IMG/VR virus record: IMGVR_UViG_3300010354_000060
Location: 18,540-82,539 of that record
Length of the DNA: 64,000 nucleotides
From: a virus
Strand: one strand, 5' to 3'
In this document: positions 39,801 to 56,990 of the stretch, in pieces
How positions within the stretch are numbered: position 1 is the first letter of the stretch
How the letters are laid out: each line of letters begins with the position of its first letter
Program-made: the position numbers and the translations under genes
The notes under the pieces: model-generated
Told to the model about the DNA's origin: nothing
What the model saw: only the letters and a program-made list of their open reading frames with translations
Databases searched by the model: none

Positions 39801-41865
39801 TATAATATGTTGAAGAACTTGATATAGCAGTTCCATAAGCATTATCTGGAAAATCTACATCCCCAGTATTTCCATTAAATGGCACCAAAGCTTTGGTGTA
39901 AATATCCGTTACATGTGCTGCAGGTACGGCATATGTAGAAGATGTATATCTGGATAATCCTACAGTGAATCTAAAGTCATCAATATAAGCATAGGTTCCA
40001 TTACTACTATCGTATGCAGAACCAATTCTAATTGCCCTTTGGGGATAATTATTTGAGTCTGCATAATTAGTGCTCTCCTGAGTACCATTAAGATAAAGTC
40101 TTGTTACATTAGATGTTCTTGATAGTGCAACATGGTTCCAAGAACCTGCAGTAATAGTATTTGAACTTTCCTTAACATCAACACCATTTAAATGAAGAAC
40201 AAGCGTATTGTTAGTACTAATCTTTAGACAAGGAGAAAATTCTGTCAGCACATTTCTCATGTCAAAAATGGTTTCGGCAGTACCATTTCTGTTTCTATAA
40301 ATCCAAAATTCAATTGTAAAGTCCTGTGTTCCAATTTCAAAATCTAAATTAGAAGCACAGGAGACATAATCAACTCCACCAGAAGTAGGATTCAGAAGAA
40401 GGGATGCATTTCCATACTTATACTGCGTTTGAGATAATGCAGCTTCATTTGCTGGAGCAAAATACTTTGATGTTGTAAAAGTTGTAATGCCACCACCAGC
40501 ATCAATTCCCCTAACGTAAATGATAAGATTATTTGTTGGAGATGTGCCACCCAATGAAGAACCAAGGGCAACGACTCTATCACCAACTACATATCCATAA
40601 CCTGTATTCACAACTGTTGGAGTATATCTTCCATTATATCTGTCAATATTAAAGATAGCGGCTGCACCGTTTCCAAAATTAACATTGGAGGCTGTTATAA
40701 TGCCAACATTTGTAGAGTTACCAATGGCAACAGCATTATAAGGCGATGATAATGTGAGAGTATTTCCATCAATGTTAGTAACAAATGTTGATTTTCCAGT
40801 GCCATCATCAATAGCATTACCAATACTAATGCCTGAATTACTGGCAACTTGGATTAGGTTAGTTGGTGGAACAACATTTTGTGCGAAAACTGTTGTGGCA
40901 GATGATGACGTAATACCAGTTACCTGAGTTCCAGTAAGGAGTCCTGCTGCAGTTAAAGGAGAACCTACAATTGAATTATTAACTCCAGTATATGCAATTC
41001 TTGTTGATCCAGTTTGAGTAATTAATTTAGATGTAAATGTTCCAGTATTACCATTAGACTGAATACTATATGTTGGAGATCCAATTGAAGCTCCAGTATA
41101 GAAACCACCCTTTCTTAATTGAGTGTATGTAGCGAATAAAGAATCGCCTGGGTTTACTCCCACTTTACCCTTAGCAAAATAGGTAAATGTGGTTGAAGAA
41201 ATAACAGTCTCTACAATAAAAGATCCTTCTGCTCTTGAAGATCCTCTTATACTTTCTGCAAGACCAACGATTCTAAATGGACTTCCAGGAGAAAGACCGT
41301 GAGTTTCTGTAGTGGTAACACTAATTAAAGATGCACCAACCCCACCAGCAGGGAAACTTGCGTCCGTAACAACTGCTGAAACTGTAACATCGGATCCAGC
41401 AATCTCATAGATACTTGGATATCCACGGATTAAATCAATAGTTTGCCATTTAGTTGGTTGAATTCCATACTCAAAGTCAGCGTCAATCATAGATTGCGGA
41501 GTTGCAACCCTCATTCTTTCAATAGCATCAGTACCAAAATCATAAGGTCTGAATTTAGTTTCTTCTACTTCAATAAAAATTGAGATAGAATCTGAAGCAC
41601 TTTGATCCGAAGTATCAAACTGAAAATGTATAGTTGTTACACCATTTGATGCTGATGTTGCATATGGGAACGAAGAATCAAAACTATCACTAAATTCAAC
41701 TACGATTTTATTCGTTGGATCAGCAAAATTGTAAAGAACTCTATTATCTGTAGTGTTGGTAATAAGAAGAATCTGATTCAGTTGGATTTTATCCAACACC
41801 TTAATACTACCAGCTCCAGCAATACCAGGAGTAAAAACATAATCTCTAATCTGTCTCTTAGCCAT
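36844..41865 (-). CDS. Large virion structural protein with internal LamG/ConA-like lectin domain (1673 aa)
   Basis: DFTIEFWIY..WNHVALSR..LYLNG..YIDDFRF LamG-like insert at about 39850-40470; GTGY..GD..T..G..LGG..P.N repeats; AGGAG RBS. Confidence 0.75.
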   Translation of the reverse strand: MAKRQIRDYVFTPGIAGAGSIKVLDKIQLNQILLITNTTDNRVLYNFADPTNKIVVEFSDSFDSSFPYATSASNGVTTIHFQFDTSDQSASDSISIFIEVEETKFRPYDFGTDAIERMRVATPQSMIDADFEYGIQPTKWQTIDLIRGYPSIYEIAGSDVTVSAVVTDASFPAGGVGASLISVTTTETHGLSPGSPFRIVGLAESIRGSSRAEGSFIVETVISSTTFTYFAKGKVGVNPGDSLFATYTQLRKGGFYTGASIGSPTYSIQSNGNTGTFTSKLITQTGSTRIAYTGVNNSIVGSPLTAAGLLTGTQVTGITSSSATTVFAQNVVPPTNLIQVASNSGISIGNAIDDGTGKSTFVTNIDGNTLTLSSPYNAVAIGNSTNVGIITASNVNFGNGAAAIFNIDRYNGRYTPTVVNTGYGYVVGDRVVALGSSLGGTSPTNNLIIYVRGIDAGGGITTFTTSKYFAPANEAALSQTQYKYGNASLLLNPTSGGVDYVSCASNLDFEIGTQDFTIEFWIYRNRNGTAETIFDMRNVLTEFSPCLKISTNNTLVLHLNGVDVKESSNTITAGSWNHVALSRTSNVTRLYLNGTQESTNYADSNNYPQRAIRIGSAYDSSNGTYAYIDDFRFTVGLSRYTSSTYAVPAAHVTDIYTKALVPFNGNTGDVDFPDNAYGTAISSSSTYYNTSGISTSVGFGAVFDIVRVGGATTTYTVNFVAGQASTGSSYSISDVITIDGSVLNGSSVTNDITITVTSVDVVGGITGFTHTGTAVSGNIFYANRRVTNSGSGATFSISKEGGVYTATPVNGGSGYYPGYQLFAAGTVLGGVIPTNNLTMTVTGIDLSGTPGAISSVSSSGTPVAGTAAVFYPTVSISETTTGQIADAATISFSSLARILVQFSSNHGLVPGDTVLSAITSVGSGHSLASGPFIVDNVPNSNQIVYSAKSTGTITSAGLAGTIYPRPDCFYVHRPFDGGVQLGTGGPAHGAHAVRQSKKYIRYQSGKGIMYTTGCLFAPSYDLRNVTSSGISTGSVITCVTDDTEHGLQVGAEVQLSGLETSGYTGTYTVNSIADENTFTVLSRGVLGSTTPTLGRPPQVSLYKWKGATVRAGAFDDQNGIFWQYDGINLAVGLRSATFQLAGTINADPDSNSITGTNTRFLDQLTAGDRIVIRGMTHIVTAVANNTSMTVTPDYRGVSSITGARASLVQDIIIPQSQWNLDRADGTGASGYDIQINKMQMIGFQYTWYGAGFIDWMLRGPDGNYLFVHRLKNNNKNTEAYMRSGNLPVRYEVINEGPKSKISEEISSSQNTIPLVDASLYPTSGTIYLDNELITYTNKSGNTLTGATRASTFSNFAGGSQRTYSAGSAAGHQRTTGAVFVSNTATPVISHWGSAFLTDGLFDTDRGYIFNYQQVGNTITTTKSTLFMIRLSPSVSNAIVGDLGQRELINRAQLLLKSLEFTPTGGASSQAVVIEGVLNPSNYPTNPSSVNWFGLSSQGAGGQPSFAQIANASNITWAGGAASFSASTTVTQNYFTQYQIFDKTATANARIGYFVSGTGVPGGTRVINIFQYDVNNNYIQFSNSVNSGTAGSISYTFTANTLSAAPGETVFSFVGTAVDKANIELNELKELNNTPIGGRGTFPNGPDVLAINAYLTTGSNITGNFVLRWAEAQA

Positions 41866-41890: not shown

Positions 41891-42973
41891 TTAAGAAAGT
41901 GCGATTGAAAATACAGCAGCTCTAGCATCAACATAATTTTTGTTGGCAGCATCGGTGCCTGTTATTGCTGTTCCTACATTTGTAACCCTATTATTTAGAG
42001 CGTTGATTGTTCCCCCAACACTCAAATTCCCCGATAAAGTTGCTGAGGTAATATTGATATTATTATCTAAGTTTACCGTTGCAACTCTATTATTATTAAC
42101 GACATTCAGGTTACTATTGAAGTTAATCGTAGTTGCAGCTCCGACTGCAACCCCCTTAGATTCAACTGCAACATTTAAACCAGTTACTGATGTAGAAATA
42201 GTGCCAACCAAATTCGCAGCATTCACAGATCCACTAAATGCTGTTGCTGTTAAAACCCCAGTAACAACACCACCATTCTGAACGATTAACTTATTTGCAG
42301 TTAAATCATCAAAAGTTGCATCAAGAATTGGCGTAGATACTGTAGTTTTGACTCCATAAACAACAAAGTTAACATAAGAATAGTCACTTGAAGAACAAAC
42401 TAATGTCTGACCTGGAGATAACTTCAGATCTTTTCTAACATATGTTTGACCTGGTTCAATTGCTGCATCATATTCAAGGAATTGTGATGTAGTAAACCCA
42501 GCAAGAACACCTGTAGTAATTCCAAGTCTTGCTACAGCAGGGACAGAATTAAGATTACAAACAACAACAGTAGCAGTAGCGTTATATCCTTCTGGAGATG
42601 TGTATAAAGTTAACTCAGTTTTTCCTGCAGTCTGAACAGAGGATAAGAATCCAGAGTTTGTAGAGTCGGATGCTGTCTCACCATACAAAACAAAGTTTGT
42701 ATTAGGATCACTTGATCTAACAAGAATACTTTGACCATTTCCAAAATAAATAGTGTCAGTCTCAAAGGTTTCCCCATAATTGATAATCCTGTTATAATGT
42801 AAGTATTCCTGATCAACACCGTTTGTGGAGATCGCAACACGGACCTTAACAGGATTATAATTTTTATGAGATATGGAAATCTTTCCTTCAACTAAATTCC
42901 CAGCAGACGAAGTATACAATGCTGTATCTTTGTTTATAACTGGTATATTTGAAGCGAGTAGGCCAAATGCCAT
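41891..42973 (-). CDS. Tail fibre/adaptor protein with two N-terminal beta-sandwich repeats
   Basis: Two T.LYT...N...VR...EY..Y...NFV.YG units followed by a fibre-like region ending DAANKNYVD. Confidence 0.6.
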   Translation of the reverse strand: MAFGLLASNIPVINKDTALYTSSAGNLVEGKISISHKNYNPVKVRVAISTNGVDQEYLHYNRIINYGETFETDTIYFGNGQSILVRSSDPNTNFVLYGETASDSTNSGFLSSVQTAGKTELTLYTSPEGYNATATVVVCNLNSVPAVARLGITTGVLAGFTTSQFLEYDAAIEPGQTYVRKDLKLSPGQTLVCSSSDYSYVNFVVYGVKTTVSTPILDATFDDLTANKLIVQNGGVVTGVLTATAFSGSVNAANLVGTISTSVTGLNVAVESKGVAVGAATTINFNSNLNVVNNNRVATVNLDNNINITSATLSGNLSVGGTINALNNRVTNVGTAITGTDAANKNYVDARAAVFSIALS

Positions 42974-43012
42974 GAACCTATAATTATAAATTTTAACTAT
43001 TTATCATTCCCT

Positions 43013-43807
43013 ATGATTGTATTAACAGGTCACGCTGGATTTATTGGACAGAATTTTCTAAAAAAATTAGAAGATAAAGATGTAATTTTGATTGAAAAAG
43101 ATGATGCCTTTAGATTTATTAGAGAGTTTGATGCATGGGATAAGGTAGAACTGATTTTACATCAAGGTGCTATCTCATCAACAACAGAAAAAAATATTCG
43201 CACAATCTATCATAACAATGTTGCATTTACTCTATTCCTTTTAGAACATGCAATGGGATATGAGATTCCAATGAAGTATGCATCGTCTGCTTCAGTTTAT
43301 GGAAATACTCAGGGAGAAATCAATCCACTAAACCAATACGCAATCTCAAAACTTCAGATTGATTACTGCGTGTTAGATAACCTTGATAAGTTTCCTTTGA
43401 TTCAAGGATTCAGATACTTTAATGTCTATGGTAACGGGGAAGATCATAAGGGTGATCAAGCTAGTCCAGTAAGTAAGTTTACAAAACAGATCAAAGAAAC
43501 TGGAGAACTCAATCTCTTTGAGGGATCTGATAAGTTTCTTCGCGACTTTGTTTGTGTTGATGATGTAGTAGATATCGTTCTAAACAACAATGCCCCAAGT
43601 GGAATCTACGATATTGGTACAGGCGAACCTATCTCATTCCAAAAGGTAGCAGAACTGGTTACAAAAAAAGAGAATGGTAAAATTAATACCATTCCCTTTC
43701 CAGATCATTTAGTTGGTAAATATCAGACTTATACTTGTGCAGACATGAGTTGGTTAGGAGAGTATAATTTCAAAACTGTCGAAGACTATCTCCTGGAACA
43801 ACCCTAA
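43013..43807 (+). CDS. hldD: ADP-L-glycero-D-manno-heptose 6-epimerase (HldD/RfaD-like)
   Basis: TGHAGFIG, HQGAISSTTE, YASSASVYG, YAISK, FRYFNVYG..E.HKG.QAS, RDFVCVDDV, GKYQ.YT.AD. Confidence 0.88.
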   Translation: MIVLTGHAGFIGQNFLKKLEDKDVILIEKDDAFRFIREFDAWDKVELILHQGAISSTTEKNIRTIYHNNVAFTLFLLEHAMGYEIPMKYASSASVYGNTQGEINPLNQYAISKLQIDYCVLDNLDKFPLIQGFRYFNVYGNGEDHKGDQASPVSKFTKQIKETGELNLFEGSDKFLRDFVCVDDVVDIVLNNNAPSGIYDIGTGEPISFQKVAELVTKKENGKINTIPFPDHLVGKYQTYTCADMSWLGEYNFKTVEDYLLEQP

Positions 43808-44144
43808 TACTATCAGTTTCAAAGTGCTGAGTTGAGAATTCAAACAACTCAGTATCTTCCAAAGCAATCATCTGATGTCTCAATCCTCTCCTAACGTGAA
43901 ATTTGTCACCTTGGGAGAGGATTATTTCGTTGGCATCATCTAAATCATCAATGTCATTATACTTAAGGATAATCTTTCCACTTTGAACATAGAAAGTTTC
44001 ATCTTTAAGGACATGATAATGGAAGGAACACTTACCACCCTTTACAAAATAAAGTAGTTTGCCACAATACTCTGAGTTGTTGACGATCCATTTCTCAAAT
44101 CCCCAACCCTTAGATACAATTTTAATTGAAGAATCCTTTGACAT
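43770..44144 (-). CDS. Cupin-fold sugar isomerase-like protein
   Basis: KGWG.E.WI.N..YCGK..CSFHYH..KDETFY..H..EFST.H. Confidence 0.7.
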   Translation of the reverse strand: MSKDSSIKIVSKGWGFEKWIVNNSEYCGKLLYFVKGGKCSFHYHVLKDETFYVQSGKIILKYNDIDDLDDANEIILSQGDKFHVRRGLRHQMIALEDTELFEFSTQHFETDSIRVVPGDSLRQF

Positions 44145-44880
44145 CTTCCTCCGTTAACACATAAGTTCCTTGATTTTGAACTGCGATAGCTGCTGCTTTA
44201 TTCGCCAACAGTATTGCTCTTTCAATACTTTCATAACAAAGATATCCATATACTAAAGCAGCAAGGAAGGTATCGCCAGCACCTGCCACATCATATACCT
44301 TTACTTTTTCTGCAGGATATAAAGTATTATTATATAGACACCCCTCTCCACCTTTGGTAACAATCAAATTATCTATGCGGCAATCTTCATTCAATTTAGA
44401 ATATTCTAAGTCATTGATTTTAATATAACAATTTTCTTTGTTTGGTAAGAGTGTTTTCTTACTATCAATAAAGATGGGAACCTCACAATTACTAACAATT
44501 TCAAATAGTTTTTGAGATGTAATATACCCTTTATTGTAATCTGAAATTACAACAGCATCAAAACTATCCGTTGATACTGGTAGAAGAAGAGGTTTTACAA
44601 TGTCCTCAACATCTACACGAAGAAGTTGTTGATTAGATTTCTCATCAATCATCCTCGTTTTGATAATCTTTTCGGGGTTAGTAAGGAATGTAATGTGCAT
44701 ATCAAATGACTGAAGATTGAGACACACATTACCCGCCATACCAGATTTCACTTCAGTTCTTGAGAACTTCATCACAGGAACAGGAGCCTCTGGACTTAGA
44801 CGCTCACACTTCCCATAGATGTACTCATCCTCACAACTATCCCCGATCAATAATACTTTGTATTGTTTTTGTTGAGGCAT
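44122..44880 (-). CDS. Heptose-7-phosphate kinase (stand-alone HldE/RfaE kinase domain, PfkB family)
   Basis: RLSPEAPVPV, GMAGNV..NL, QQLLRVD, SDYNKG, DVAGAGDTF. Confidence 0.88.
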   Translation of the reverse strand: MPQQKQYKVLLIGDSCEDEYIYGKCERLSPEAPVPVMKFSRTEVKSGMAGNVCLNLQSFDMHITFLTNPEKIIKTRMIDEKSNQQLLRVDVEDIVKPLLLPVSTDSFDAVVISDYNKGYITSQKLFEIVSNCEVPIFIDSKKTLLPNKENCYIKINDLEYSKLNEDCRIDNLIVTKGGEGCLYNNTLYPAEKVKVYDVAGAGDTFLAALVYGYLCYESIERAILLANKAAAIAVQNQGTYVLTEEDVKGFFN

Positions 44881-45238
44881 ATTCTTCTATACGATCAAAA
44901 AATACTAATTCAGTTGCGTAATGAGATCCGATTACTGTTTTACCTTTCCAGTCAGACCCAACAATCATTATATCAGGTTTTACAATTTTGACAAGACTTT
45001 CTAATTGTTCATCACTTGCAAAAGAAAGAACTACATCTACAGGTTTGAGATTCTGTAGATGAAATATTCTCTCTTGTAGATTATAAACAGGTCTTGATGG
45101 TCCTTTCTTTTCTTTGACTCTTTCATCAGTATCAATTGCCACATACAAAAAGTCTCCTAAACTTTTTGCATAGCTTAGGAGATGTATATGACCCGAATGA
45201 AGTAAATCAAAAGTGCCATTTACAAAAACTTTTTTCAT
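44837..45238 (-). CDS. Heptose-1-phosphate nucleotidyltransferase (stand-alone HldE/RfaE domain II)
   Basis: NGTFDLLHSGH (HxGH), D.DERV..KG..RP, KPDI..VGSDW. Confidence 0.85.
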   Translation of the reverse strand: MKKVFVNGTFDLLHSGHIHLLSYAKSLGDFLYVAIDTDERVKEKKGPSRPVYNLQERIFHLQNLKPVDVVLSFASDEQLESLVKIVKPDIMIVGSDWKGKTVIGSHYATELVFFDRIEEYASTKTIQSIIDRG

Positions 45239-46920
45239 TCGTTAGGAATATAAGCAAGTTTCTGAATTTCAGGAAGATACATATACTCAATGTCACACCT
45301 CTTCAAGGTATTAACACCATCCTCAACAGTCTCAACCAGTGGATCGCCACCAAGATTAAAACTTGTATTGAAGAGAATAGGAACTTCACTCAATTTTTCA
45401 AAGGCATCAATCAGATTATAGTAGTGTTCATTCTGTTCTGTAGTTACAGTTTGAATACGGCAAGTTCCATCAACGTGAATGACAGAAGGAATTTTTTCTT
45501 CAACTCCAGGATGACACTTAACAGCATACATCATGTGAGGAGTTTCATCACGCCCAGCAAGATCAAACCAATCATGAACCTTATCTTGCTTAATAGAACA
45601 AGCAAAAGGACGGAACCATTCACGATGCTTCACAGCATTCACAATATCCTTACCATCTTTAATGGTGGGATCAAACAGAATAGAACGGTTACCAAGAGCA
45701 CGAGGACCACCTTCAGAACGACCCTGATACACAGTAACAATATTACCATCACGAATCAGTTTAGCAACTTCATCATAAGAAGTATCAGTTACTTCAAGAC
45801 CTTCCAGAGCATCTTCATAGGTAGAAGAATCATACTGAGGACCATAATAAACTGATGCCTGCTTCTTCACTTCCTTCTTAGCAGAAACATCATGCCAAAT
45901 ATAGTTAGCACCACCGATTGAAGTGCCGCCATCATGAGAGATTGGTTCGCAATAGATATTCAGATCAGGGAATGCTTGAAGATACTTGTAGTTAGCGACA
46001 CAGTTCAGACCATATCCACCACAAACAACAATGTTTGTCTCACCAGTTTCTTCATGAGCCTTACGGATCAGTTCAATCATACGATTCTCAGTTGCCTCCT
46101 GAATCGCATATGCCATATCCTTTTGAATATCAGTGTATTGATTTTCCTGATGATTCTTAACATCCTCAAGGAGAAGAGGATAACGACCTACGTTAATCTT
46201 TGCAGCATTAGGATACGTAGGAATAATCAATTCACGATTACTCCAACCATTACTGAAGAACTTAGGAAGATCTTCATTTGGTTTACCATAAGGAGCAAGA
46301 CCCATCAGTTTGCCTGCTTCAATAGCAGGGAAACCACAATACTCAGTTACTGCTTCATACATCTTGGTATGACCAGGATATTCTGTAACAAATACTCCAG
46401 TATCAACTTGATTGCAACCAATTGCTGCTTTTGTGCCAAGGTGTTTATAAACTACTTCAAAGTTCTTAGGATAAGAAGCTCTAAAGATAGTTTCAAATTC
46501 AAACAGAATATCATCAATGCCTTCATATTGAAGGAAACTTCCAGCACCATCAGCAATCACACATGCAGCGGTTTCAAACCCAGAGTTATAAAAACCACAA
46601 GCAGCGTGCATTTCATGGTGAATTAGATCAATGAAATGAACTTTAAAATCAAACTTTTTCTTGGCAAGTTTCCTCACCCAACCATGATATAGATCTTCGC
46701 CAGTCCAATCCAGTTTAGGACCATGGCGGTGAGTATGACAAACTACAAGATGATCAATGTGGTCCACATACTCAAATACTTTTGCCAGACCAAGAAGAGG
46801 TGATCCATCATACTTCATCTTGGAAAGACGTTCTTCCTCAAGATAAAAGATGATCTCACCATCCTTCATTAAAGTCGTACTCCCGTTGTGTCCACGGGCA
46901 ATTGATGCAATAATTGTCAT
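45235..46920 (-). CDS. Carbamoyltransferase (CmcH/NodU/TobZ family)
   Basis: EEERLSK.K, HHEMHA, DGAG, GKLMGLAPYG, GG.GLNC, GPRALGNRSIL, KHREWFRPFA, HVDGTCRIQTV, NTSFN. Confidence 0.93.
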   Translation of the reverse strand: MTIIASIARGHNGSTTLMKDGEIIFYLEEERLSKMKYDGSPLLGLAKVFEYVDHIDHLVVCHTHRHGPKLDWTGEDLYHGWVRKLAKKKFDFKVHFIDLIHHEMHAACGFYNSGFETAACVIADGAGSFLQYEGIDDILFEFETIFRASYPKNFEVVYKHLGTKAAIGCNQVDTGVFVTEYPGHTKMYEAVTEYCGFPAIEAGKLMGLAPYGKPNEDLPKFFSNGWSNRELIIPTYPNAAKINVGRYPLLLEDVKNHQENQYTDIQKDMAYAIQEATENRMIELIRKAHEETGETNIVVCGGYGLNCVANYKYLQAFPDLNIYCEPISHDGGTSIGGANYIWHDVSAKKEVKKQASVYYGPQYDSSTYEDALEGLEVTDTSYDEVAKLIRDGNIVTVYQGRSEGGPRALGNRSILFDPTIKDGKDIVNAVKHREWFRPFACSIKQDKVHDWFDLAGRDETPHMMYAVKCHPGVEEKIPSVIHVDGTCRIQTVTTEQNEHYYNLIDAFEKLSEVPILFNTSFNLGGDPLVETVEDGVNTLKRCDIEYMYLPEIQKLAYIPNE

Positions 46921-46936
46921 ATAAAATTACCTTTAA

Positions 46937-48100
46937 TTATTTTTGAACCGAATCAAGAAATCCTGATACCTTTTTAGTTCCATTATTTGATTTTAATGCC
47001 TCACCCATCAATTCGTCAACTGCACTTTTCTTTTTTGGTGCTGCTGTTGATACATCAGTTGCCCCAGTAAACTGAGGAGATTGTGTCATCTGAGCTGGGG
47101 GCATACCACAACCCTGATTTTGCTGTTCCATTGAAGGAAGAACAATGTTCTCATTCTTCTTTACAAAATACTTATTCATCAATTTATCAACAGACTGAAC
47201 GATAACATCTTCAATCTTATCATTCATTGCCATGATGCCATCATTCACTCTTTGAGTAACCTCATCCATAGTAATACGAATGGGATCATAAATCCTCATC
47301 CCTTCGCCCATGTCAAGAACTTCAAACTTATCATAGTTAGGATAACTAATATTTTCTTTACATGTAGCACCAACCACAACTACAGCAGGAACTTCAAAAG
47401 AGTATGCCATATGCTGACCGACAGAATCGCATCCTAAGAATAGATCCGATTCACTAATGATACCAGCCCATTGGCGAAGATCAATACCACGAGGAGCAGC
47501 AACAGGATCTTTACATCCTTCTTTTTGGAAATCAAGATCAATTTCGCCCATGTAGATTACAGCATACTTACGCTGAAGTTTCTTGATGATATTAATTACA
47601 TTCATCAATTCAAAACTTCTGCCACTGGAATCAGTAACAAAGTTACCAACTACCTGTGTCCCACGACCAAATGGTTGGAATACAACTACTTTATCTTTCT
47701 TTGTTTTTTGTCTTACGTCTTCAAGGACAAACTTACCATGGATCATTTCCTGTCTGGAAAGTTTAATAGTTGGTTTTGAAAGGTCTCTAATACCCTTACC
47801 ATTGATCTGAATATCAAAAGCCTGAGATAGGTTACACTTTTGATTATAATATTCCCAAATACGATATGGTTCTGTCGTAACAATATCCATATCCTTCAGT
47901 TTATCTCTGAAGAGATTCTTATGCCAGTGGTCGTAAACTCTGGGATAAAGTGATGGATGACCTTTGAAGAAGTCTGTTCCGCCCTCGCAGACAATCAGGA
48001 AATCTTCATCAGGATTTTCTTCTTGATATTTTTCAAATGCTGGAATAGAGCAAACTACACGCCCTGCGCCACCATTCACAAAAAATGCTTTTGGTCTCAT
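46937..48100 (-). CDS. GT-B glycosyltransferase, GT9/heptosyltransferase-like
   Basis: GGAGRV..SIP at the N-terminus; LRQWAGII..SDLFLGCDSVGQHMA..F.VP.VVV.G resembles the GT9 'D(S/T)G..H.A' motif. Confidence 0.7.
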   Translation of the reverse strand: MRPKAFFVNGGAGRVVCSIPAFEKYQEENPDEDFLIVCEGGTDFFKGHPSLYPRVYDHWHKNLFRDKLKDMDIVTTEPYRIWEYYNQKCNLSQAFDIQINGKGIRDLSKPTIKLSRQEMIHGKFVLEDVRQKTKKDKVVVFQPFGRGTQVVGNFVTDSSGRSFELMNVINIIKKLQRKYAVIYMGEIDLDFQKEGCKDPVAAPRGIDLRQWAGIISESDLFLGCDSVGQHMAYSFEVPAVVVVGATCKENISYPNYDKFEVLDMGEGMRIYDPIRITMDEVTQRVNDGIMAMNDKIEDVIVQSVDKLMNKYFVKKNENIVLPSMEQQNQGCGMPPAQMTQSPQFTGATDVSTAAPKKKSAVDELMGEALKSNNGTKKVSGFLDSVQK

Positions 48101-48139
48101 ACTCGCCTCAAAGGGGATAATGTTTTAATTATACGTTGC

Positions 48140-48147
48140 TATTTAGC
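48140..48147 (-). promoter_or_regulatory. Late promoter variant (GCTAAATA) for the glycosylation operon
   Basis: Directly downstream of the terminator, about 40 nt before the glycosyltransferase ATG. Confidence 0.5.
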
Positions 48148-48177
48148 AAAAGTAAAGGGGGTCATTTCTGACCCCCT
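48148..48177 (-). terminator. Rho-independent terminator
   Basis: AGGGGGTCA-GAAA-TGACCCCCT then TTACTTTT. Confidence 0.85.
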
Positions 48178-48199
48178 CGGTAGTATTATCTACACTCTA

Positions 48200-49072
48200 T
48201 CAGGTAGTGGCAACACCAACCTTGAATTTTTCTGGTGGCTCTGGAGCAATTTTTTCCTCGTCGGTCAATTCTGCTTCAGCAAGTGCTTCCCAATCATAAC
48301 CAGTCTTAACTGGAGCTGGTTCCTCAGCAGTTACAGCAGATTCAAAGGGGACTGTTGGAGGAAGAATTTCAGTTTCGGGAACCAATCCACCTCTTTCTGC
48401 AGTCCATGCATCATCATATCTTGGGTCAGTTGGAAATGGAACCATCCAAGGAGTATCCATATAGTCTGCAAACTTTGTAGGAACATTTTCAAATTCATTA
48501 ACAAAATCAGACCACTTTTTCTTTTGAGTGGAAGTAAATACTGAAGTATCCACTTCACCCATCAAGTTCGAGAGATTGGTAAATGCAGACTCAAATACCT
48601 CTCTAGTAATATGAGGAGTTTTCCAAGGAAATGGTCTCTTCCAATCATTCGCTTCAAAATCCCACTCACAATCTGCAACTTCAATTGTATGATTTGGTAG
48701 GGTAGGATCTGGTCTACTATAAAAAACTTCTCCGCCAGGAGTTAATCTATACTCTTTTTGTGGCTCATCAGATGCTACTCTGGTCTGAACAATTGCCGAA
48801 AGTAAAATCGGATCCTTAGAGAATTCAATTGGGGCATGATATGCATCAAGACCACTCACAATATCCATATTTGCATCATTTTCTTCCTGAGTTAAGGAAT
48901 CATCATGATCTCTATAACTCCAGGAAGGAATTATCTTACCATCTTTATCAACAAATACATAGACTTTTTCGGGACCTTCATATTCCCATTCACCAATTAA
49001 ACCCAAATCAGTTGTCTGTGCCAGATACTCATCTGGCAAAGGATATGTAAATTTCTGTTTGATGTTAGCCAT
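48200..49072 (-). CDS. Putative tail fibre assembly chaperone-like protein
   Basis: Acidic; C-terminal KKW..F...P......PW.VPFP.DP resembles phage tail assembly chaperones; follows the adhesin trio. Confidence 0.45.
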   Translation of the reverse strand: MANIKQKFTYPLPDEYLAQTTDLGLIGEWEYEGPEKVYVFVDKDGKIIPSWSYRDHDDSLTQEENDANMDIVSGLDAYHAPIEFSKDPILLSAIVQTRVASDEPQKEYRLTPGGEVFYSRPDPTLPNHTIEVADCEWDFEANDWKRPFPWKTPHITREVFESAFTNLSNLMGEVDTSVFTSTQKKKWSDFVNEFENVPTKFADYMDTPWMVPFPTDPRYDDAWTAERGGLVPETEILPPTVPFESAVTAEEPAPVKTGYDWEALAEAELTDEEKIAPEPPEKFKVGVATT

Positions 49073-49115
49073 TTTAAAAAGTAACTCCTAACTTGGAATA
49101 TTTATTAATATGATT

Positions 49116-50072
49116 TTATACGTATCTAACGGTTACACGTACTGCACCCGCCCATCCTTGAGTTCCACAGCAGCAGCTGCCACCACAAACGTGTGCGGAT
49201 ACACCAGCCAACCCAGGAACATAAGAGTTCTGATCGGACTGAGCAGAAAATCCTAATTCTCCAGCAGCAGAGCACTGGGCAAAGTATCCACAACTTGAGT
49301 TTTCACATACGTCTTGAACCAAGTATCCACCTTGCTGATTAACAAGTCCACCAGAATAAGGAATATAATACTTATTCCAGCATCTTCTTTCGTGGCAAGC
49401 AAGTTGATATGCTCCAGGAAGTCCATATGCACCACCATCAGCACCATAATAAAGGGAGCAGCATCCAACACAAGAAGTATTAAATCCTACAATATCTCTG
49501 TTTCCACCAAAACCTTCGGTTGCGCCAATAGCAGTCTTAAAGTGGCAACGCTGCCAGAATTGGCATTGGCAGAAAGAACATCCCTTAACACCACCTTCAG
49601 CACAGAAGTTGGTAAGTCCAATTCCTGTTACATAAGTCTTACAACCATCAATTCCAGTCGGTCCAGGATTTCTACATGTCATAGAACCAATACAGAAGTT
49701 GTAGACAGTTCCTGAAGTAACTCCAATAACAGTCTTATAGGCATAAGCACCAGCGCCAGCAGGAATACCATAAGCACAGCAGCAAGCGCCAGCTCCACCA
49801 CCACCAGAACCCCAAATCTCAAAAGTAACAACAGTTGTCCCTGTTCCAGGATATGAAGGTACTTTCCAGCAACAGTAACTATAGTTATTGTAACCTGAAG
49901 TATAATCTCCAGCAGGAGCCTGGCAGCAAGTTAGTTCTGTGCTATCACAGGTTCCACACATATGTGCGGAAAACCAAGTTACCTGACCGTCCCTAAGTCT
50001 ACCAATACCACCAGAGTGAATACCTGTAAAATTAGTGTCTGAAGATCCCAATAGAGTTCTTAGGTTTGCCAT
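49116..50072 (-). CDS. Cys/Gly-rich gp38-like adhesin paralogue 3
   Basis: FEIWGSGGGGAGACCC, GAGAYAYK, GLTNFCAEGG; 29 Cys in 318 aa by hand count. Confidence 0.65.
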   Translation of the reverse strand: MANLRTLLGSSDTNFTGIHSGGIGRLRDGQVTWFSAHMCGTCDSTELTCCQAPAGDYTSGYNNYSYCCWKVPSYPGTGTTVVTFEIWGSGGGGAGACCCAYGIPAGAGAYAYKTVIGVTSGTVYNFCIGSMTCRNPGPTGIDGCKTYVTGIGLTNFCAEGGVKGCSFCQCQFWQRCHFKTAIGATEGFGGNRDIVGFNTSCVGCCSLYYGADGGAYGLPGAYQLACHERRCWNKYYIPYSGGLVNQQGGYLVQDVCENSSCGYFAQCSAAGELGFSAQSDQNSYVPGLAGVSAHVCGGSCCCGTQGWAGAVRVTVRYV

Positions 50073-50099
50073 TTCTTAAATATCCCTGTTAATGATTAT

Positions 50100-51059
50100 T
50101 TATCTGTAAGTGATTCTAATAAGACCAGCATTACCACGCGACCCATTGCAACACCCACCAGCACAAGAAGTTGAAGAAGGAACACCAGCACCTCTCATTC
50201 CACCACTACAATCTGGGTTACCAGGCCATTCTCCCTGCACACATTGTGCTCTTTGGTTGAGACAGGCATTACCAGTGTTTCTAGTAATTACATATCTTGT
50301 TTGAGTGTCTCTGAAACCACCTGGTTGAGGAATACCCAATCTTACGAAACACCAGTTATTGCAGATACAATCTACACGGAACCAACCAGGTTTTCCAGGA
50401 ACACCATAATCAGCACCATAATAGCAAGCACAATCACAACGATAGCAACTACCAGAAATTGGATCAAGCGTATAGCAACCACCAGAATTTTGTGCGCTTT
50501 GTCCGCCACCACCAGGTCCCCAAGTACCAGTTAGGTTTGCACCAAACTGATCAGTATAGATATAGCAACAAGTTCTACCAGGCATTCCACCTTCAGCACA
50601 GAAGTTGGTAAGTCCACATCCAGTAATCCATGTCTTACAACCCTGAAGTCCTACGCAACAAGCAGAGCAGCAAGTAGGAGGAGCAATACAAAGAAGGTAG
50701 CACATGCCACCAAGAGTATCAAGACCTAAATCACATGCACAAAGTGTCTTCATTGCATAAGCACCAGCACCACTAGGAGAACCTTGTTGGCAGCAGCAAG
50801 AACCAGCTCCACCACCACCGCCTCCCCAGATTTCAAACTGGACAGTAGTTACTCCAGGATATACACAATATCCCATGCACCATTGACGATAAGTTGTATC
50901 ACAATTATCCATCCAGCAGTGACCTGAATAGAAGTTTGTGTAACCATCTACAAGGGTGTTACCCCATCCACTGCCCCATTGGGTGGATTGATATCCACAA
51001 GTACGTTTCTGGAGTTCAGTTTGAGTTTCAGTATTTAGAAGTTTTCTTAAATCTGACAT
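50100..51059 (-). CDS. Cys/Gly-rich gp38-like adhesin paralogue 2
   Basis: FEIWGGGGGGAGSCCC, GAGAYAMK, GLTNFCAEGG; 35 Cys in 319 aa by hand count. Confidence 0.65.
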   Translation of the reverse strand: MSDLRKLLNTETQTELQKRTCGYQSTQWGSGWGNTLVDGYTNFYSGHCWMDNCDTTYRQWCMGYCVYPGVTTVQFEIWGGGGGGAGSCCCQQGSPSGAGAYAMKTLCACDLGLDTLGGMCYLLCIAPPTCCSACCVGLQGCKTWITGCGLTNFCAEGGMPGRTCCYIYTDQFGANLTGTWGPGGGGQSAQNSGGCYTLDPISGSCYRCDCACYYGADYGVPGKPGWFRVDCICNNWCFVRLGIPQPGGFRDTQTRYVITRNTGNACLNQRAQCVQGEWPGNPDCSGGMRGAGVPSSTSCAGGCCNGSRGNAGLIRITYR

Positions 51060-51070
51060 TATTCTTCTCC

Positions 51071-52258
51071 TTAACCGTAAGTAATGATAACTTGACCTGG
51101 GTGACCATACCCACCACAGTAGCAGTTTCCACCAGTTGAAGCGGATGTCAACCCTCCCATTCCAGGAATTCCATGATCCCTATTAGAACCATTATACCCA
51201 AAGAAATTATTAGTTCTATTTGGTTGACCAGTAGGGCCACTTTGGTTCATAGATGTAAGTCTATAAGGAATCCAACCACCATTAGTATTAATCAGTCCAC
51301 CAGGGTATGGTGAATACTGAAGAATCATACAGAAGTCACCCATATCCATGTTACATGGAGTACCAACCCATCCAGGAAGTCCAATAGCGCCACCATCTGC
51401 ACCAAAGTAAGGAGCACACATTGGAACACAGCTCTGGCAGAGTCCGCCATAGCAAGGATTAACCGCATGTCCGTATGAAACTCTCTTTCCACATGATCCA
51501 AATGTGTTTCCAATACCAATCAGGTCATAATAACCAGTAATAACACCATCACATGCATAGATGTTACCTGATCCACAATTATTATTCTTTAATTTCTTAA
51601 ATAGATCAAAGCAATCTCTAACTCCCTGACCCCATGGACCAGGAGCAATATCTGAACAACCCCAATAGCAATACCAACACCAAGCAGCTGTCGTATACTG
51701 ACATGATCCATTGAATCTATATCCTTCGGCACATGAAGGTTCATAGCAACACATGCAAGACTGTGGGAAGCTACAATGGCAGGATGTATATCCAGGTGCT
51801 CCACCCTCTGCACAGAAGTTATCTAAACCATGCCCATTAATAAAAGTCTTACATCCACGATATCCATAACTATCTGGACTGACGCAGGATCCACCACCAA
51901 CACAAAATTCATATTGGCATCCACCTAAGTCATATCCAGTACAAATACACTTATATGCATAAGCACCTGCGCCACCAGGTTGACCAAACATACAGCAGCA
52001 TGTTCCTGCACCACTTCCACCACCACCCCAAATTTCAAACTTAATAAAAGTCGTTCCAGTGGGTGGTTTCCATACGTAACATTCAAAATGCCCCTGTGAA
52101 GTGGATTGATAACAACGGTTACGATACTTAATCTGCTTATAGGCAGATCCTGGAAATCCTGGTGGATTTGCAGTCGCAATGCCTACCGCAGCAAGTGTTT
52201 GGGAAGTTTGAATCCCAGATCGATTAGTACTATCAATTAAATCTCTTAGGTTAGCCAT
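51071..52258 (-). CDS. Cys/Gly-rich gp38-like adhesin paralogue 1
   Basis: FEIWGGGGSGAGTCCC, GAGAYAYK, GLDNFCAEGG; 34 Cys in 395 aa by hand count. Confidence 0.65.
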   Translation of the reverse strand: MANLRDLIDSTNRSGIQTSQTLAAVGIATANPPGFPGSAYKQIKYRNRCYQSTSQGHFECYVWKPPTGTTFIKFEIWGGGGSGAGTCCCMFGQPGGAGAYAYKCICTGYDLGGCQYEFCVGGGSCVSPDSYGYRGCKTFINGHGLDNFCAEGGAPGYTSCHCSFPQSCMCCYEPSCAEGYRFNGSCQYTTAAWCWYCYWGCSDIAPGPWGQGVRDCFDLFKKLKNNNCGSGNIYACDGVITGYYDLIGIGNTFGSCGKRVSYGHAVNPCYGGLCQSCVPMCAPYFGADGGAIGLPGWVGTPCNMDMGDFCMILQYSPYPGGLINTNGGWIPYRLTSMNQSGPTGQPNRTNNFFGYNGSNRDHGIPGMGGLTSASTGGNCYCGGYGHPGQVIITYG

Positions 52259-52292: not shown

Positions 52293-52631
52293 TTATGAGT
52301 TGAGGAGAACCCATCCAAAAGTAGATCCGCTGTAAAGAAGTTCTACTGAGTTGTTAGGTACGTTAAGAACAAGATTTTCGTTCAAGTTAGCAATCTTTGT
52401 CGTGGCAGTAGTGACTCCAACGGTTACAGGGTTAGTTCCCCAGGTACCAGCAGGATCAACAATTGAAATTCTGTCTCCAACATTTACATCGCCAACTGAA
52501 GGAATGTTCAGTGTGACTGCACCCGATGTAGTGTTTACAAGATAGGTTTTACCAGCGGAAGCGGTGTAAGGCGTAGAAGATACGTTTACAACTTCTGAGG
52601 TAAAAGTAGAAGCGGAAATAAAGCGTCCCAT
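52293..52631 (-). CDS. Small tail fibre protein (single gp34-like repeat)
   Basis: YLVNTTSGAVTLNIP..VGDRISIVD..GTW.TNPVTV..ELLY..GW. Confidence 0.6.
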   Translation of the reverse strand: MGRFISASTFTSEVVNVSSTPYTASAGKTYLVNTTSGAVTLNIPSVGDVNVGDRISIVDPAGTWGTNPVTVGVTTATTKIANLNENLVLNVPNNSVELLYSGSTFGWVLLNS

Positions 52632-52647
52632 TTTCGTTAATTACTCC

Positions 52648-52965
52648 TTATACTGATTGTTCTACACCGTAAACGTTAACGCTTACGTTTGTTGAGTTTG
52701 AATATGCGATGACTCTTCTACCAGCTTCAATAACCAAACCTGTTCTTTCCAATACGCCGTTTGGTGCGATGAAAGAATCATATTCAATATACTCAGCGGT
52801 TGTAGGCGCTGAAGTAGCAGCAAGTGCTACTCGCACTGCAACATCAGATGCGTTTCTATTTGAAACGTTAACATTAACGTATGCAAGAGTGCTGGAAGGC
52901 ACCGTATATACTGTTGTGTTTGTTGTAGATGCAAGAGATACTTGCCCTAATACTCCAGAAGCCAT
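52648..52965 (-). CDS. Small beta-sandwich fibre adaptor protein
   Basis: TTVYTVP..VNVSNR..VRVA..EYIEYD..VLERTGLV..NVYGVE. Confidence 0.6.
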   Translation of the reverse strand: MASGVLGQVSLASTTNTTVYTVPSSTLAYVNVNVSNRNASDVAVRVALAATSAPTTAEYIEYDSFIAPNGVLERTGLVIEAGRRVIAYSNSTNVSVNVYGVEQSV

Positions 52966-53003: not shown

Positions 53004-53011
53004 TATTTATA
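53004..53011 (-). promoter_or_regulatory. T4 late promoter TATAAATA
   Basis: Perfect consensus upstream of the adaptor/adhesin operon. Confidence 0.7.
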
Positions 53012-53028: not shown

Positions 53029-56000
53029 TCAAGAGGATGCTAACCAGTATGCGAATGGTCTTGACTTAAGAATTGAAGTATCAACATAAGTCTTGACTGC
53101 TGCCTGTGTGGCAACCTTTTCATTACTATTCTGAGACAGAGTTCCGTCAACAGAGAATTCATTAATTTGAGCACCTAACTGAGCACCAATGGAACCCAGT
53201 CTCAAGGATGTCAGACCTGACAAGTCAAACGCAGAAGCGTTCAGAGTTGCGCTACCAGTTGCCTGGTTAACACGGAAATACTTACCAACACGGAAGTTAC
53301 CATTCTGGTCTGTGGATACGTAATAAACACGACCAGGATAGGTCTCATTAACTTCCCTTGAAGGAATAGGAGCAGAAAGCGGCGTAGAAGGCCAGTTAGT
53401 ATTTGCCTTATTACCAGTACCAAGTTGTAGGAAGTCGTGACCTGTTAAACGAACCTGAGAATATAGGTATCTAACTTTCAAGGTCTGTTCATCAAATGCA
53501 TAATTTGGTTTTTCATCGGCAAGAACAACAATCAAAATACCAGTAGTATCAGGACGAATTGCAGTTATTCTTACAATTTCATTATCAATTCTTACAAAAT
53601 TAGTAGTCGTGAATCCTGAAGTTGAGGTAACTCTCATTTGTGTGGAGATACCTGTAAAGTCCTTCAGTGTTTCAGGAGCCAATGTATTTGGGAATCCAAT
53701 AGCAGTGATTGCAGCACCAGCAGACACACCAGAAGCAGTTGTTCCTTCGGATGCTCTGGTAACATTAATCTGAGTTCCACCAGTGAAGCTATTGATAAGC
53801 ATCAATTCTCCACTTGGAGAAAGAACATAACCACCTTGTTGGAATCCACCAGTAGAAGATACTGGAATTGCAGTATCACCAGCACCAACTGCACCCGAAA
53901 GTGTTGTCGTGTTTGCAGTAAATGGCAGGTTCTTCATAACCTTAATGCCACCAGTATGACCTGCAGCAACTGTAGTTAATTGACCTCTTTGAATGTCAAT
54001 TGAACCTCTTCCATCTGGACCAGTATAAGAAGTTGACTGAATAACATATGAGAAAGGATCTGCACCAGTAATTGTAGTTCCAATACCAGATAAAGTACCA
54101 CCATATCCATTACCTGTAACGAATTCAACACTACCACCTTCATATACCTGAGATGTAGTAAGTCCCGATGTAATCAGAGTAAATCCTTTCTGACCTCTGT
54201 TTGCATCAGTATTATTCGTTAAGTTAGCAGTTGTTCCACTGGTTAAACCACGAATTTCTTCATTTTGAAGGAATCCAGAGCTGATACCAACGTTTGGACC
54301 CTTAGTAACAAGAGTATAATAGATTACAGCAGATGAAGTTTGAACCGAATTAATAATACCAATAGCCCCTGATGTGGCACCACGAACTCTCTCATACTGA
54401 ACGAATCCAGGTGAAGTTAAAGTCTCAACATTATACTTTAAGACAAGTCCTTCAACTTTACCCGTTGCAGGTACTTCTGCCTGGTTATATCCAGAAGAAA
54501 CGATACCATAGTTACCCCAAGAACTGTTACCAGCAAGAGATCTAATTCTACCACCACGAGTTGAAGTATAAGAAATATGGTTATAATAAGTAAAGCAAGA
54601 AACCATTTCTGCCGCACCATTATTCGTTACCCAGAAGGCAACACCATCATCATTGATATTCGTCCAAGAGTCAAAAACAATAGATTTATTAGATTTTACA
54701 GGACCAGCATCATACTGATCATGAGTTTTACCATCAACAATTGCTCCAACTCCACCAGTGGAGATTATGGAACAGTTTGAAACGTATGGCGATTTCGTGA
54801 TTGGAGAAGAAGGATTCAGTCTTACCGCTACACCTTTAACAGTGGCATTATTCATGTCACTGGAAGGTGCCGTAAAGGTAAGAGGAGTTGATCCAACTGT
54901 CTGAGAAATATCAACTTCTACTTGAGTCGTACTAATAAAGTTAACAACCTTACTTCCAGGAGAAACTCCAGACCCAGAAACAGTTGTTCCAACAAGATCA
55001 GGATATAATCCAGTAGAAGTAAGAATTGTTCCTGAAATAGCACCAGTCTGCGTTAGAACTGCACCTGCAGGAACAAACCCAGTCAGTCCCCCCAGTAGAA
55101 CGTCCTTAAGCATCGTAGAACTGCTTAAGTAGAACATTGTGGTCTGAGCGTTAGTGCGAGTTTCAACTGCACTAATTGTTGAACCATTAGGAGCATAAGT
55201 ATCAGCAGTGGTCCATGCACCACCACTAACCTGCATAATTTCAATCTTATTCTGGAAGTAGTTTGCTTCCATGACACGAGCAACCTTAGTTCCTGCACCA
55301 TTAGCAATAGTACTTCCATATGAAATACTGCCACTAAAAGCAGTATCAATTGTCAGAATTTGGGTTTTTGAATTACCTGCTGCTGGTAGGATTTGCGAAG
55401 TTCTGAGGTTATCGCCAACAAGAGTTACATTTTCAGGAAGGATGATTGGTAATTGCTCTTCATAGGTTCCTGCTTTTACATAAATTGTAGCAGGACCAGT
55501 TGTAGCAACACCAACTGCACGGGCAATAGTAGCAAATGAATTGCTAATATTCTTACCATTATTTAAATCACTACCCTCTTCAGAAACATAGAAGACTGGG
55601 TAAGTAGTATTGTTATTCACCCATTGAGGAATACCAGTGGTTGAAACACCAAGAACCTGACCACTTGTTCCAATTGGGAGAGCAGCAGCGCCAGCACCGC
55701 TCTTATAGATCATATCGCCAGTGGCAGAAAGAACGTTCGTTGCCGAACCTTCTGTCAGTGGGTTCCAATATGTTCCAAGGGAATCTAATTCAGGTGCATG
55801 ATTAAAGTTTGTTGAAGCAACGCTAACATAACTATTACTATTTCTTGAAACAGTATCGCCAAGTTCATAGGTTGTGAGTGAACTCCAAGCACTCTTCCAC
55901 TCAAAACCTTTAACAATCAGATCCCAAGCAGTTCCATATCCTACTGCAACAGGACTGGTTGTTTGTGCAGCACCTGCAACAGGAATATTTTGCTTGGCAA

Positions 56001-56585: not shown

Positions 56586-56990
56586 TTACTTAGGTCCTGC
56601 GGTATTATGATCATAGCTGCTACCAAGGCGAGCAACCAAATATCCATCATCATCAATGAAGTAAGTCAAGTTTCTAAAATCAAATCTATACTGTTGATAT
56701 TTATCTGCTGGGTGATTCTTATAAGTTTTATCTTCCGTCGTCTCATCAACATAGTCAACACCATCAAGAAAACCAGGATATTGGGTTCCGTCAGTTCTAT
56801 GAAAATCAGCAGTTTCAGAGGAATCAGTAGATCTTACCTTAGTATACCAAAGCATTCCATCATCAGAATCAGTGGCAGAGCCACCACCTCTACGTAATGC
56901 ATGAACGAAAAAATCGGTAAGTTGAGATACCATTTTTCCGCTTCCTCCCCCAGAGGAAGAAGCCGCTATACCACTTAAGAACATTGTCAT
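56586..56990 (-). CDS. Hypothetical virion protein
   Basis: FFVHALRR..DGMLWYTKV..YQQYRFD..YFIDDDGYLVAR; start set at the ATGA overlap. Confidence 0.6.
   Translation of the reverse strand: MTMFLSGIAASSSGGGSGKMVSQLTDFFVHALRRGGGSATDSDDGMLWYTKVRSTDSSETADFHRTDGTQYPGFLDGVDYVDETTEDKTYKNHPADKYQQYRFDFRNLTYFIDDDGYLVARLGSSYDHNTAGPK

Follow-up and report, generated by a model that had tools for sequence, protein, structure and literature searches.

A stretch of viral DNA, nearest among isolates to the T4-like cyanomyovirus S-CAM1 (a Synechococcus phage in the Kyanoviridae), contains a group of genes that is best read as a fiber-tip module with its own tailoring enzymes. The stretch, hereafter the window, is 64,000 nucleotides (nt) long and forms part of an 82.5-kb IMG/VR record (IMGVR_UViG_3300010354_000060) whose completeness is estimated at about 38%. 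In the module, three cysteine-rich (Cys-rich) candidate tip proteins and a chaperone-like protein are encoded directly upstream of an enzyme resembling glycosyltransferase family 9 (GT9), an O-carbamoyltransferase, and predicted enzymes of nucleoside diphosphate (NDP)-heptose synthesis. The Cys-rich genes and the GT9-like gene accompanied one another in every scorable locus that we collected. Among the explanations that we weighed, we tentatively favor the one in which the phage heptosylates and carbamoylates its own fiber-tip proteins late in infection. An earlier note on the window, made from its letters alone, had argued for such a system; overall, that interpretation is partly supported.

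All ten genes that the earlier note had called in the module proved to be open reading frames with exactly the boundaries given here, and profile searches back the epimerase, the cupin, the split HldE, and the carbamoyltransferase. The gene order is equal to that of S-CAM1 across the region. The features, following the minus strand, are listed here.

53004 to 53011, minus strand: TATAAATA, matching the late-promoter consensus exactly; the ATG of the next gene follows after 38 nt.
52648 to 52965, minus strand: conserved protein of 105 amino acids (aa), first in the tip operon, with homologs of 43 to 46% identity at the same position in loci L033, L046, and L060.
52293 to 52631, minus strand: 112-aa protein containing a domain like the N-terminal one of T4 gp9/gp10 (Pfam T4_gp9_10_N, E 1.6e-8), conserved in position.
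51071 to 52258, minus strand: Cys-rich, glycine-rich candidate tip protein 3, 395 aa with 34 Cys (Gly_rich_2, 32.1 bits against a cut-off of 24.3; phrog_4205).
50100 to 51059, minus strand: Cys-rich, glycine-rich candidate tip protein 2, 319 aa with 35 Cys (phrog_4205, E 3e-58; composition).
49116 to 50072, minus strand: Cys-rich, glycine-rich candidate tip protein 1, 318 aa with 29 Cys (AlphaFold2 model, fold matches, and WGGGGGGAG followed by CCC).
48200 to 49072, minus strand: acidic 290-aa protein, SPC, a candidate fiber assembly chaperone (phrog_9740).
48155 to 48178, minus strand: terminator-like hairpin closing the tip operon, with 10 pairs, six of them G-C, and a T-rich tail.
48140 to 48147, minus strand: GCTAAATA, a late-type promoter motif 39 nt upstream of the GT9-like ATG.
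46937 to 48100, minus strand: GT9-like GT-B glycosyltransferase, 387 aa, with a core of residues 1 to 320 and a disordered tail.
45235 to 46920, minus strand: O-carbamoyltransferase, 561 aa, with Kae1-like and YrdC-like domains (both Pfam domains above cut-off).
44837 to 45238, minus strand: heptose-1-phosphate nucleotidyltransferase, 133 aa, of the HldE domain II or HldC type (TIGR02199, E 4e-32).
44122 to 44880, minus strand: heptose-7-phosphate kinase, 252 aa, of the HldE domain I or HldA type, shortened (TIGR02198, E 2e-45).
43770 to 44144, minus strand: metal-binding cupin, 124 aa (Cupin_2, E 2e-8).
43013 to 43807, plus strand: HldD-like ADP-heptose 6-epimerase, whose gene converges on the operon (Pfam Epimerase, E 4e-23; TIGR02197, E 5e-65).

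Genomic co-occurrence with the Cys-rich genes had been set beforehand as the test on which the proposal could fail, and the proposal withstood it strongly. The GT9-like family led us to 80 viral loci and the Cys-rich family to 78; for scoring, we used profiles derived from the window, S-CAM1, S-SSM7, and P-SSM2. A locus was scorable when it had enough flanking DNA; Cys-rich genes were counted within 8 kb and the carbamoyltransferase within 3.5 kb of the GT9-like gene. Of the loci that could be scored, all 45 found through the GT9-like gene had Cys-rich genes, and all 48 found through the Cys-rich genes had the GT9-like gene. The GT9-like genes of these loci form 37 clusters at 80% identity. 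The carbamoyltransferase lay downstream of the GT9-like gene in 66 of 73 loci. Neither a GT9-like gene and carbamoyltransferase without a Cys-rich fiber protein nor the reverse was seen among the loci scored. All of the loci come from related T4-like phages, in which the order of structural genes is largely conserved, and the contigs are non-independent samples.

The usual order is tips, chaperone-like gene, GT9-like gene, carbamoyltransferase. In loci L040 to L047 the tip block is inverted yet still adjacent. In the most distant loci, L176 to L178 (35 to 40% identity), the protein encoded upstream is 593 to 1,257 aa long with 9 to 10% Cys; the carbamoyltransferase is still downstream. Cys content is thus kept in these upstream genes although their sequence has diverged. 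The genes themselves (L176:4159-6171, L177:4112-7885, and L178:6034-7815) are unmatched by the tip profile. Of the complete genomes compared, two (S-CAM1 and P-SSM2) contain tips together with the GT9-like gene, and three (S-SM2, P-TIM68, and S-T4) contain neither. The conserved unit is therefore made up of the Cys-rich tip or tips, the chaperone-like gene, the GT9-like gene, and the carbamoyltransferase.

A GT9 homolog also occurs in Vibrio phage SBP1, an N4-like member of the Schitoviridae. It is 244 aa long (L004:7001-7735), passes PF01075, and sits between a beta-helix tailspike gene and a gene for a 925-aa tail-tip fiber with 4.4% Cys. SBP1 has no heptose pathway of its own in the region of this gene.

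The transferase gave little by sequence comparison. The window copy had no match in Pfam, and PF01075 was carried by one close homolog and by the distant Vibrio phage homolog. NCBIfam returned weak matches to heptosyltransferase III (22.9 bits, cut-off 170) and RfaQ and nothing else. The single sequence found nothing useful in the PDB, a family profile gave marginal matches to WaaF and WaaC, and hhalign aligned the C-terminal domain only. Among 1.8 billion cluster representatives we found 433 relatives, which share a core of about 310 residues. An AlphaFold2 model drawing on 71 relatives had a predicted local distance difference test (pLDDT) score of 88 over residues 1 to 320, and Foldseek ranks 1 to 15 for this model were all GT9 enzymes (3tov, 2gt1, 1psw, 2h1h, 4rap; E 5e-12 to 3e-8). 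By its predicted fold, the protein is a GT-B enzyme with two Rossmann domains whose nearest solved relatives are GT9, as the earlier note had supposed. The earlier note had also pointed to the GT9-related Aah/TibC enzymes, and here the results differ from its account. The Foldseek order was a Veillonella GT9 protein, WaaC, WaaF, and then TibC (E 1e-8). TibC is not a nearer relative than WaaC or WaaF, and an Arg stands at the place of the catalytic Asp.

Two stretches of the GT9-like protein can be set against the characterized enzymes. In D225-S-x-G-Q-H230, which aligns with DSGLMH of WaaF and DTGLSH of WaaC, D225 and H230 are invariant and S226 is nearly so. After strand 1, at the start of helix 1, the family has G13-R14-V...IPA where WaaC has G-D13-V...LPA. 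R14 is at least 90% conserved and, as judged by motif register and topology and not by residue-level superposition, occupies the place of the catalytic Asp13 of WaaC.

The GT9-like family is restricted to phage-like DNA in the databases scanned. With a narrower alignment, 185,579 species genomes yielded only 12 loci. Each came from a metagenome bin, the bins belonging to unrelated phyla, and phage-like gene content surrounded the match in the 11 that were distinct. No cellular copy of the family was indicated in this set. The bins that hold these module-bearing phage contigs (L167 to L178) are metagenome-assembled genomes labeled as archaea, Bacteroidota, Neomarinimicrobiota, Polynucleobacter, and others; most likely, the labels reflect mis-binned viral contigs. 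A complex prediction for the GT9-like core and tip protein 1, run without controls, scored 0.00, which counts neither for nor against the proposal.

The three upstream paralogs had been called adhesins with 29 to 35 Cys each. The counts are 29, 35, and 34 for tip proteins 1, 2, and 3, corresponding to 9.1, 11.0, and 8.6% of residues, and glycine makes up about 18%. The AlphaFold2 model of tip protein 1 (pLDDT 78) matched chains of the Bxb1 tail tip (E 7e-6) and the Pam3 fiber protein gp24 (E 9e-5, TM score 0.52 by target). The predicted fold thus supports an adhesin-like character for the three proteins, which would be located in the virion. All carry GGGGxG motifs, and in the window proteins WGGGGGGAG occurs with CCC after it. 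According to the Pam3 report (PMC9608196), gp24 is a TNF-like protein with a glycine-rich receptor-binding tip, has GGGGxGG motifs, and resembles gp38 of phage S16; the chaperone gp25 assembles gp24 and was shown bound to it. A tblastn search with a tip protein found only S-CAM1 and S-CAM3 among isolate phages. Profiles added S-SSM7 and P-SSM2, and the tblastn shortfall therefore marks a limit of sensitivity.

The 290-aa protein had been described as chaperone-like. Its position is constant, always interleaved with or after the Cys-rich genes, and it belongs to no known family. Leads from a language-model protein atlas to Phage_tail_APC and Caudo_TAP weakly suggest a chaperone-like role.

In the carbamoyltransferase, Carbam_trans_N matched with 79.6 bits (cut-off 24) and Carbam_trans_C with 193.8 bits (cut-off 27), and the nearest solved structures were TobZ, GdmN, and NovN (E 1e-45 down to 2.8e-52). 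In some loci, one or two extra genes without a Pfam match lie between the GT9-like gene and the carbamoyltransferase (L046:10999-12822 and L060:10987-11817).

The late promoter of T4 and the cyanomyoviruses is NATAAATA (PMC2984593). In the window, the spacer before the GT9-like ATG holds the hairpin (48178-48155), its T-rich tail, and then GCTAAATA (48147-48140), the terminator and late-type promoter of the earlier note. A hairpin followed by xTAAATA was found before the GT9-like gene in 56 of 79 loci, including nearly all of the closer relatives, in spacers that are otherwise divergent. The variants of xTAAATA in related loci were TATAAATA, CATAAATA, AATAAATA, and CCTAAATA. Neither CTAAATA nor TATAAATA was enriched over the whole window, and the weight of the motifs comes from their positions and their recurrence in relatives. 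They suggest that the GT9-like operon is expressed late. In one metatranscriptome library, exact contigs covered the carbamoyltransferase, tip proteins 1 and 2, and the two small genes, with DNA carry-over possible. An exact match to NATAAATA, GATAAATA, also occurs at 42995-43002 on the minus strand, 22 nt upstream of the ATG of a 360-aa fiber-like gene (41891-42973). It lies in the 39-nt gap between that gene and the divergent epimerase gene, on whose side the gap carries TATAAT and TATAAATT.

TIGR02198, TIGR02199, and TIGR02197 were the best NCBIfam matches of the kinase, the nucleotidyltransferase, and the epimerase, respectively, and all scored under their equivalog cut-offs (for the epimerase, 219.8 bits against 274.6). 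We aligned the proteins with E. coli HldE and HldD. The kinase retains SPEAPVPV and GAGD and has deletions of about 26 and 17 residues. The epimerase retains GxxGxxG, the catalytic Ser, and YxxxK and lacks a nucleotide-binding loop of about 21 residues. In the nucleotidyltransferase, HxGH is retained and an Arg stands five residues ahead of the (A/S)ST motif, likewise in cyanophage orthologs. A commentary on Tang et al. 2024 (PMC11461863) ties this arrangement, termed STTR5, to the making of CDP- and UDP-heptose as well; ADP-heptose is therefore not necessarily the donor.

A cupin is present in every heptose cassette. Its matches are weak and are confined to the Cap5F cupin domain and WbuC-type cupins; it may fill a gap in the pathway. 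The PHROG label "cysteine dioxygenase" was unsupported.

The window and its nearest relatives (L005, L006, and L163) are missing a small gene known as T4-GC 306. It encodes 107 to 114 aa in S-CAM1 (L001:10631-10954), P-SSM2 (L003:13024-13368), and S-SSM7 (L002:17711-18046). The protein has an N-terminal DxDGT motif, and its best matches are HAD phosphatases (TIGR01689, E 1e-8; HAD-IIIA). Its sequence therefore suggests that the public annotation "phosphoheptose isomerase" is wrong and that T4-GC 306 is probably a GmhB-type phosphatase and not GmhA. This reading bears on the statement, in the same commentary, that viruses are without the phosphatase.

The earlier note had treated the whole operon as coupled to the Cys-rich genes. 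This was borne out for the GT9-like gene and the carbamoyltransferase but not for the heptose genes, which adjoin the unit in 15 of the 50 loci with more than 9 kb of downstream sequence. In two long contigs without an adjacent cassette, another part of the record carried a fused kinase-nucleotidyltransferase, an epimerase, and a cupin; for the record of L060, where the distance was measured, some 16 kb separate the heptose match from the GT9-like gene. No match to the nucleotidyltransferase was found in three long contigs without adjacent heptose genes, which are 35 to 60% complete, too little for the absence to carry weight. L033 has a GmhB-like phosphatase immediately after the carbamoyltransferase. 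The kinase was present in all seven isolate species that have the GT9-like gene, and it also occurs in five further isolate species in which the GT9-like gene is missing. From this pattern, the GT9-like enzyme appears to depend on heptose supply. The heptose genes are thus a separable supply cassette. In the three of these five that were inspected, S-SM2 (L164), P-TIM68 (L165), and S-T4 (L166), the cassette comprises the kinase, nucleotidyltransferase, HAD, cupin, and epimerase genes, and the large surrounding cluster adds genes of transketolase-like, dehydrogenase, and methyltransferase type. All three genomes lack Cys-rich and GT9-like genes.

From these elements we propose the following scheme. 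A late operon starting from the exact TATAAATA would produce the two small structural proteins, the three receptor-binding tips, and the chaperone-like protein. After the terminator, a second late-type promoter would drive the GT9-like enzyme, the carbamoyltransferase, the kinase, the nucleotidyltransferase, and the cupin, and the convergent epimerase gene would complete the block. The phage would thereby make NDP-heptose, a sugar reported to be missing from cyanobacterial lipopolysaccharide (LPS). The GT9-like enzyme would move heptose onto the tips, or onto another protein of the fiber module, in the cytoplasm before assembly, and the carbamoyltransferase would afterwards O-carbamoylate the sugar. 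For a carbamoyltransferase acting on heptose there is a precedent in WapO of Pseudomonas (PMC8005017). What the data show are the identities and folds of the genes, the strict linkage of tips, GT9-like gene, and carbamoyltransferase, and the recurrence of the late-type motif; we infer the heptose donor, the tip acceptor, the order of the two reactions, and their timing.

Several observations weigh against this scheme. No glycan has been observed to date on virion proteins of these phages. With Arg14 at the place of the catalytic Asp, the activity and chemistry of the GT9-like enzyme are uncertain. The claim that the phage makes its own heptose donor fits the motifs of the kinase, the nucleotidyltransferase, and the epimerase, but two steps went unrecognized: we found no match to a SIS-type isomerase (SIS_2) or to the small HAD phosphatase of the relatives in the 82.5-kb record, which covers about 38% of the genome, so that both could be encoded elsewhere. 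In S-SM2, P-TIM68, and S-T4 the heptose cassette lies within clusters of other glycosyltransferases near hli genes. Its presence in phages without tips or the GT9-like gene implies that heptose has other uses in cyanophages. Finally, given shared ancestry and the broad synteny of the fiber region, the genes may to some extent be neighbors simply because their order was inherited.

A bolder version of tip glycosylation takes the GT9-like family to be a protein heptosyltransferase acting on the cysteine thiols of the tips, which would amount to a virus-encoded S-linked glycosylation widespread in aquatic phages. The idea comes from the roughly 10% Cys that is kept even where the architecture of the neighboring protein changes completely. 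We regard it as speculative and probably wrong. If it were true, carbamoyl-heptose would form part of, or mask, the receptor-binding surface.

Of the other explanations, remodeling of the host envelope survives best, and we consider it unlikely. Here a heptose glycan would be built or altered on the surface of the infected cell, for instance to block superinfection or to keep progeny from adhering to debris, and the position of the genes among fiber genes would be incidental. T4-GC 304, 305, 307, and 308 have been classed as LPS genes (Sullivan et al. 2010, PMC3037559), and the idea of superinfection exclusion is repeated in a review (PMC2984593). Most characterized GT9 enzymes work on the LPS core, and the heptose cassettes of S-SM2, P-TIM68, and S-T4 stand within polysaccharide-type clusters. 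However, cyanobacterial LPS is described in a review (PMC4515613) as lacking heptose as well as 3-deoxy-D-manno-oct-2-ulosonic acid (Kdo), that is, the Kdo/heptose core that GT9 enzymes extend. Across 93 scorable loci and five complete genomes, the GT9-like gene never occurred without Cys-rich fiber proteins. Strict linkage to the tips, loss of the catalytic Asp of the LPS enzymes, and the reported absence of the usual acceptor are left unexplained by host-surface remodeling. The recurrence of a late-type promoter ahead of the GT9-like gene and the confinement of the family to phage-like DNA also speak against it.

The remaining alternatives are each less likely than host-surface remodeling. 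In one, which we think quite improbable, the enzymes serve the fiber module without glycosylating protein. Their product would be a soluble or lipid-linked carbamoyl-heptoside, for instance a ligand, folding aid, or cofactor bound by the Cys-rich tips, or else the carbamoyltransferase itself would modify protein side chains. The solved relatives of the carbamoyltransferase (TobZ, GdmN, and NovN) all use small molecules, the Arg at the catalytic Asp place would fit an unusual and possibly anionic acceptor, and some loci have the extra no-family genes between the two enzymes. Yet the module contains no carrier, membrane, or export gene, and the enzymes are partnered most tightly with a protein family and not with another metabolic gene.

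Slightly less probable still is that no functional link exists and that the fiber region is a variable hot spot whose gene order was inherited in one phage lineage. The restriction of the loci to related T4-like phages, their mostly conserved structural order, and the non-independence of the contigs are in keeping with this. But the adjacency outlasts inversion, swapped Cys-rich architectures, and divergence down to 35% identity, and the presence or absence of the tips and the GT9-like gene is concordant in complete genomes. The unrelated N4-like lineage also has its GT9 homolog among fiber genes. Hypermodification of phage DNA, with heptose added to a modified base, is the weakest proposal and very improbable: phage glycosyltransferases that act on DNA are known (cited within PMC12619734), but there is no base-hydroxymethylase or DNA-modification gene beside the module, as far as the surroundings of the module in this fragmentary record extend, the neighbors are structural, and the promoter is late-type.

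The genes of the module are already known and in part annotated in P-SSM2, S-SSM7, and S-CAM1. The cyanomyovirus string T4-GC 296 to 308 (PSSM2_301-313, SSSM7_113-133, and SXBG_00216-00229; PMC3037559) has the same genes in the same order as the window, namely fiber, small proteins, Cys-rich, chaperone-like, GT9-like, carbamoyltransferase, nucleotidyltransferase, kinase, cupin, and epimerase; the window differs from it in missing the small T4-GC 306 gene. In the records of P-SSM2, S-SSM7, and S-CAM1 the Cys-rich, chaperone-like, and GT9-like genes are labeled hypothetical. In the papers, the sugar genes are taken for LPS genes. They are listed as cyanophage "LPS genes" whose purpose is unsettled (PMC3037559 and PMC2984593). 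The commentary on the 2024 study (PMC11461863) states that viral enzymes can make ADP-heptose and calls the role of viral NDP-heptose an open question. In the literature that we searched, no paper tied these cyanophage genes to virion glycosylation.

The components of tip glycosylation have separate precedents, in that virion glycosylation is known from mycobacteriophages and protein heptosylation from bacterial adhesins. The TibC-TibA and Aah-AIDA-I systems (PDB 4RAP/4RB4) resemble the module in pairing a GT9-related GT-B enzyme that uses ADP-heptose with a presumed adhesin target encoded beside it. They differ in that the NCBIfam scan of the GT9-like protein gave no match to the TibC/Aah family model, the candidate acceptors of the window are glycine- and Cys-rich tips as opposed to serine-rich beta-helices, and a carbamoyltransferase is also present. 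Pam3 gp24/gp25 and S16 gp38 (PMC9608196; PDB 7YPX) resemble the window tips in their glycine-rich receptor-binding fold, in their GGGGxG motifs, and in having a partner gene directly after; the parts of that report consulted mention no sugar enzymes for Pam3. The window tips, in contrast, have 9 to 11% Cys, come as two to five paralogs, and are tied to two tailoring enzymes. In mycobacteriophages, phage glycosyltransferases modify the phage's own virion proteins (Freeman et al. 2023, cited in PMC12619734). Their targets are the capsid and tail-tube C termini, whereas the system predicted for the window would add a donor pathway of its own and a carbamoyl step and has fiber tips as candidate targets. 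The inner core of Pseudomonas LPS combines a GT9 enzyme with a carbamoyltransferase of the NodU/CmcH family, WapO (PA5005), giving 7-O-carbamoyl-heptose (PMC8005017). There, within a cellular LPS pathway, the lipid A-Kdo core serves as acceptor, and our comparison with WapO is by family and role and not by alignment.

From the strict coupling of tips and enzymes follows a concrete hypothesis: the phages, which are abundant in the sea, would put sugars on the very proteins with which they bind receptors. If this holds, the host range and adsorption of major ocean phage groups would rest on a posttranslational sugar code, and the GT9-like proteins would be a new family of protein glycosyltransferases.

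The block is flanked by large fiber and structural genes with CBM5/12, Laminin_G_3, Mtd_N, and gp9/10_N domains. The gene at the head of the module is the following.

53029 to 56571, minus strand: long fiber protein, 1,180 aa, with a CBM_5_12 domain; the S-CAM1 counterpart is annotated as a tail fiber protein.

The C-terminal 140 or so residues of this fiber are conserved at the head of the module, with 46 to 53% identity in L033, L046, L060, and L077. A 149-aa protein at 56987-57436 on the minus strand matched Mtd_N, the N-terminal domain of the major tropism determinant (E 4e-14). On the other side of the module, a 1,673-aa structural protein (36844-41865, minus strand) contains Laminin_G_3 and endosialidase beta-barrel-like domains.

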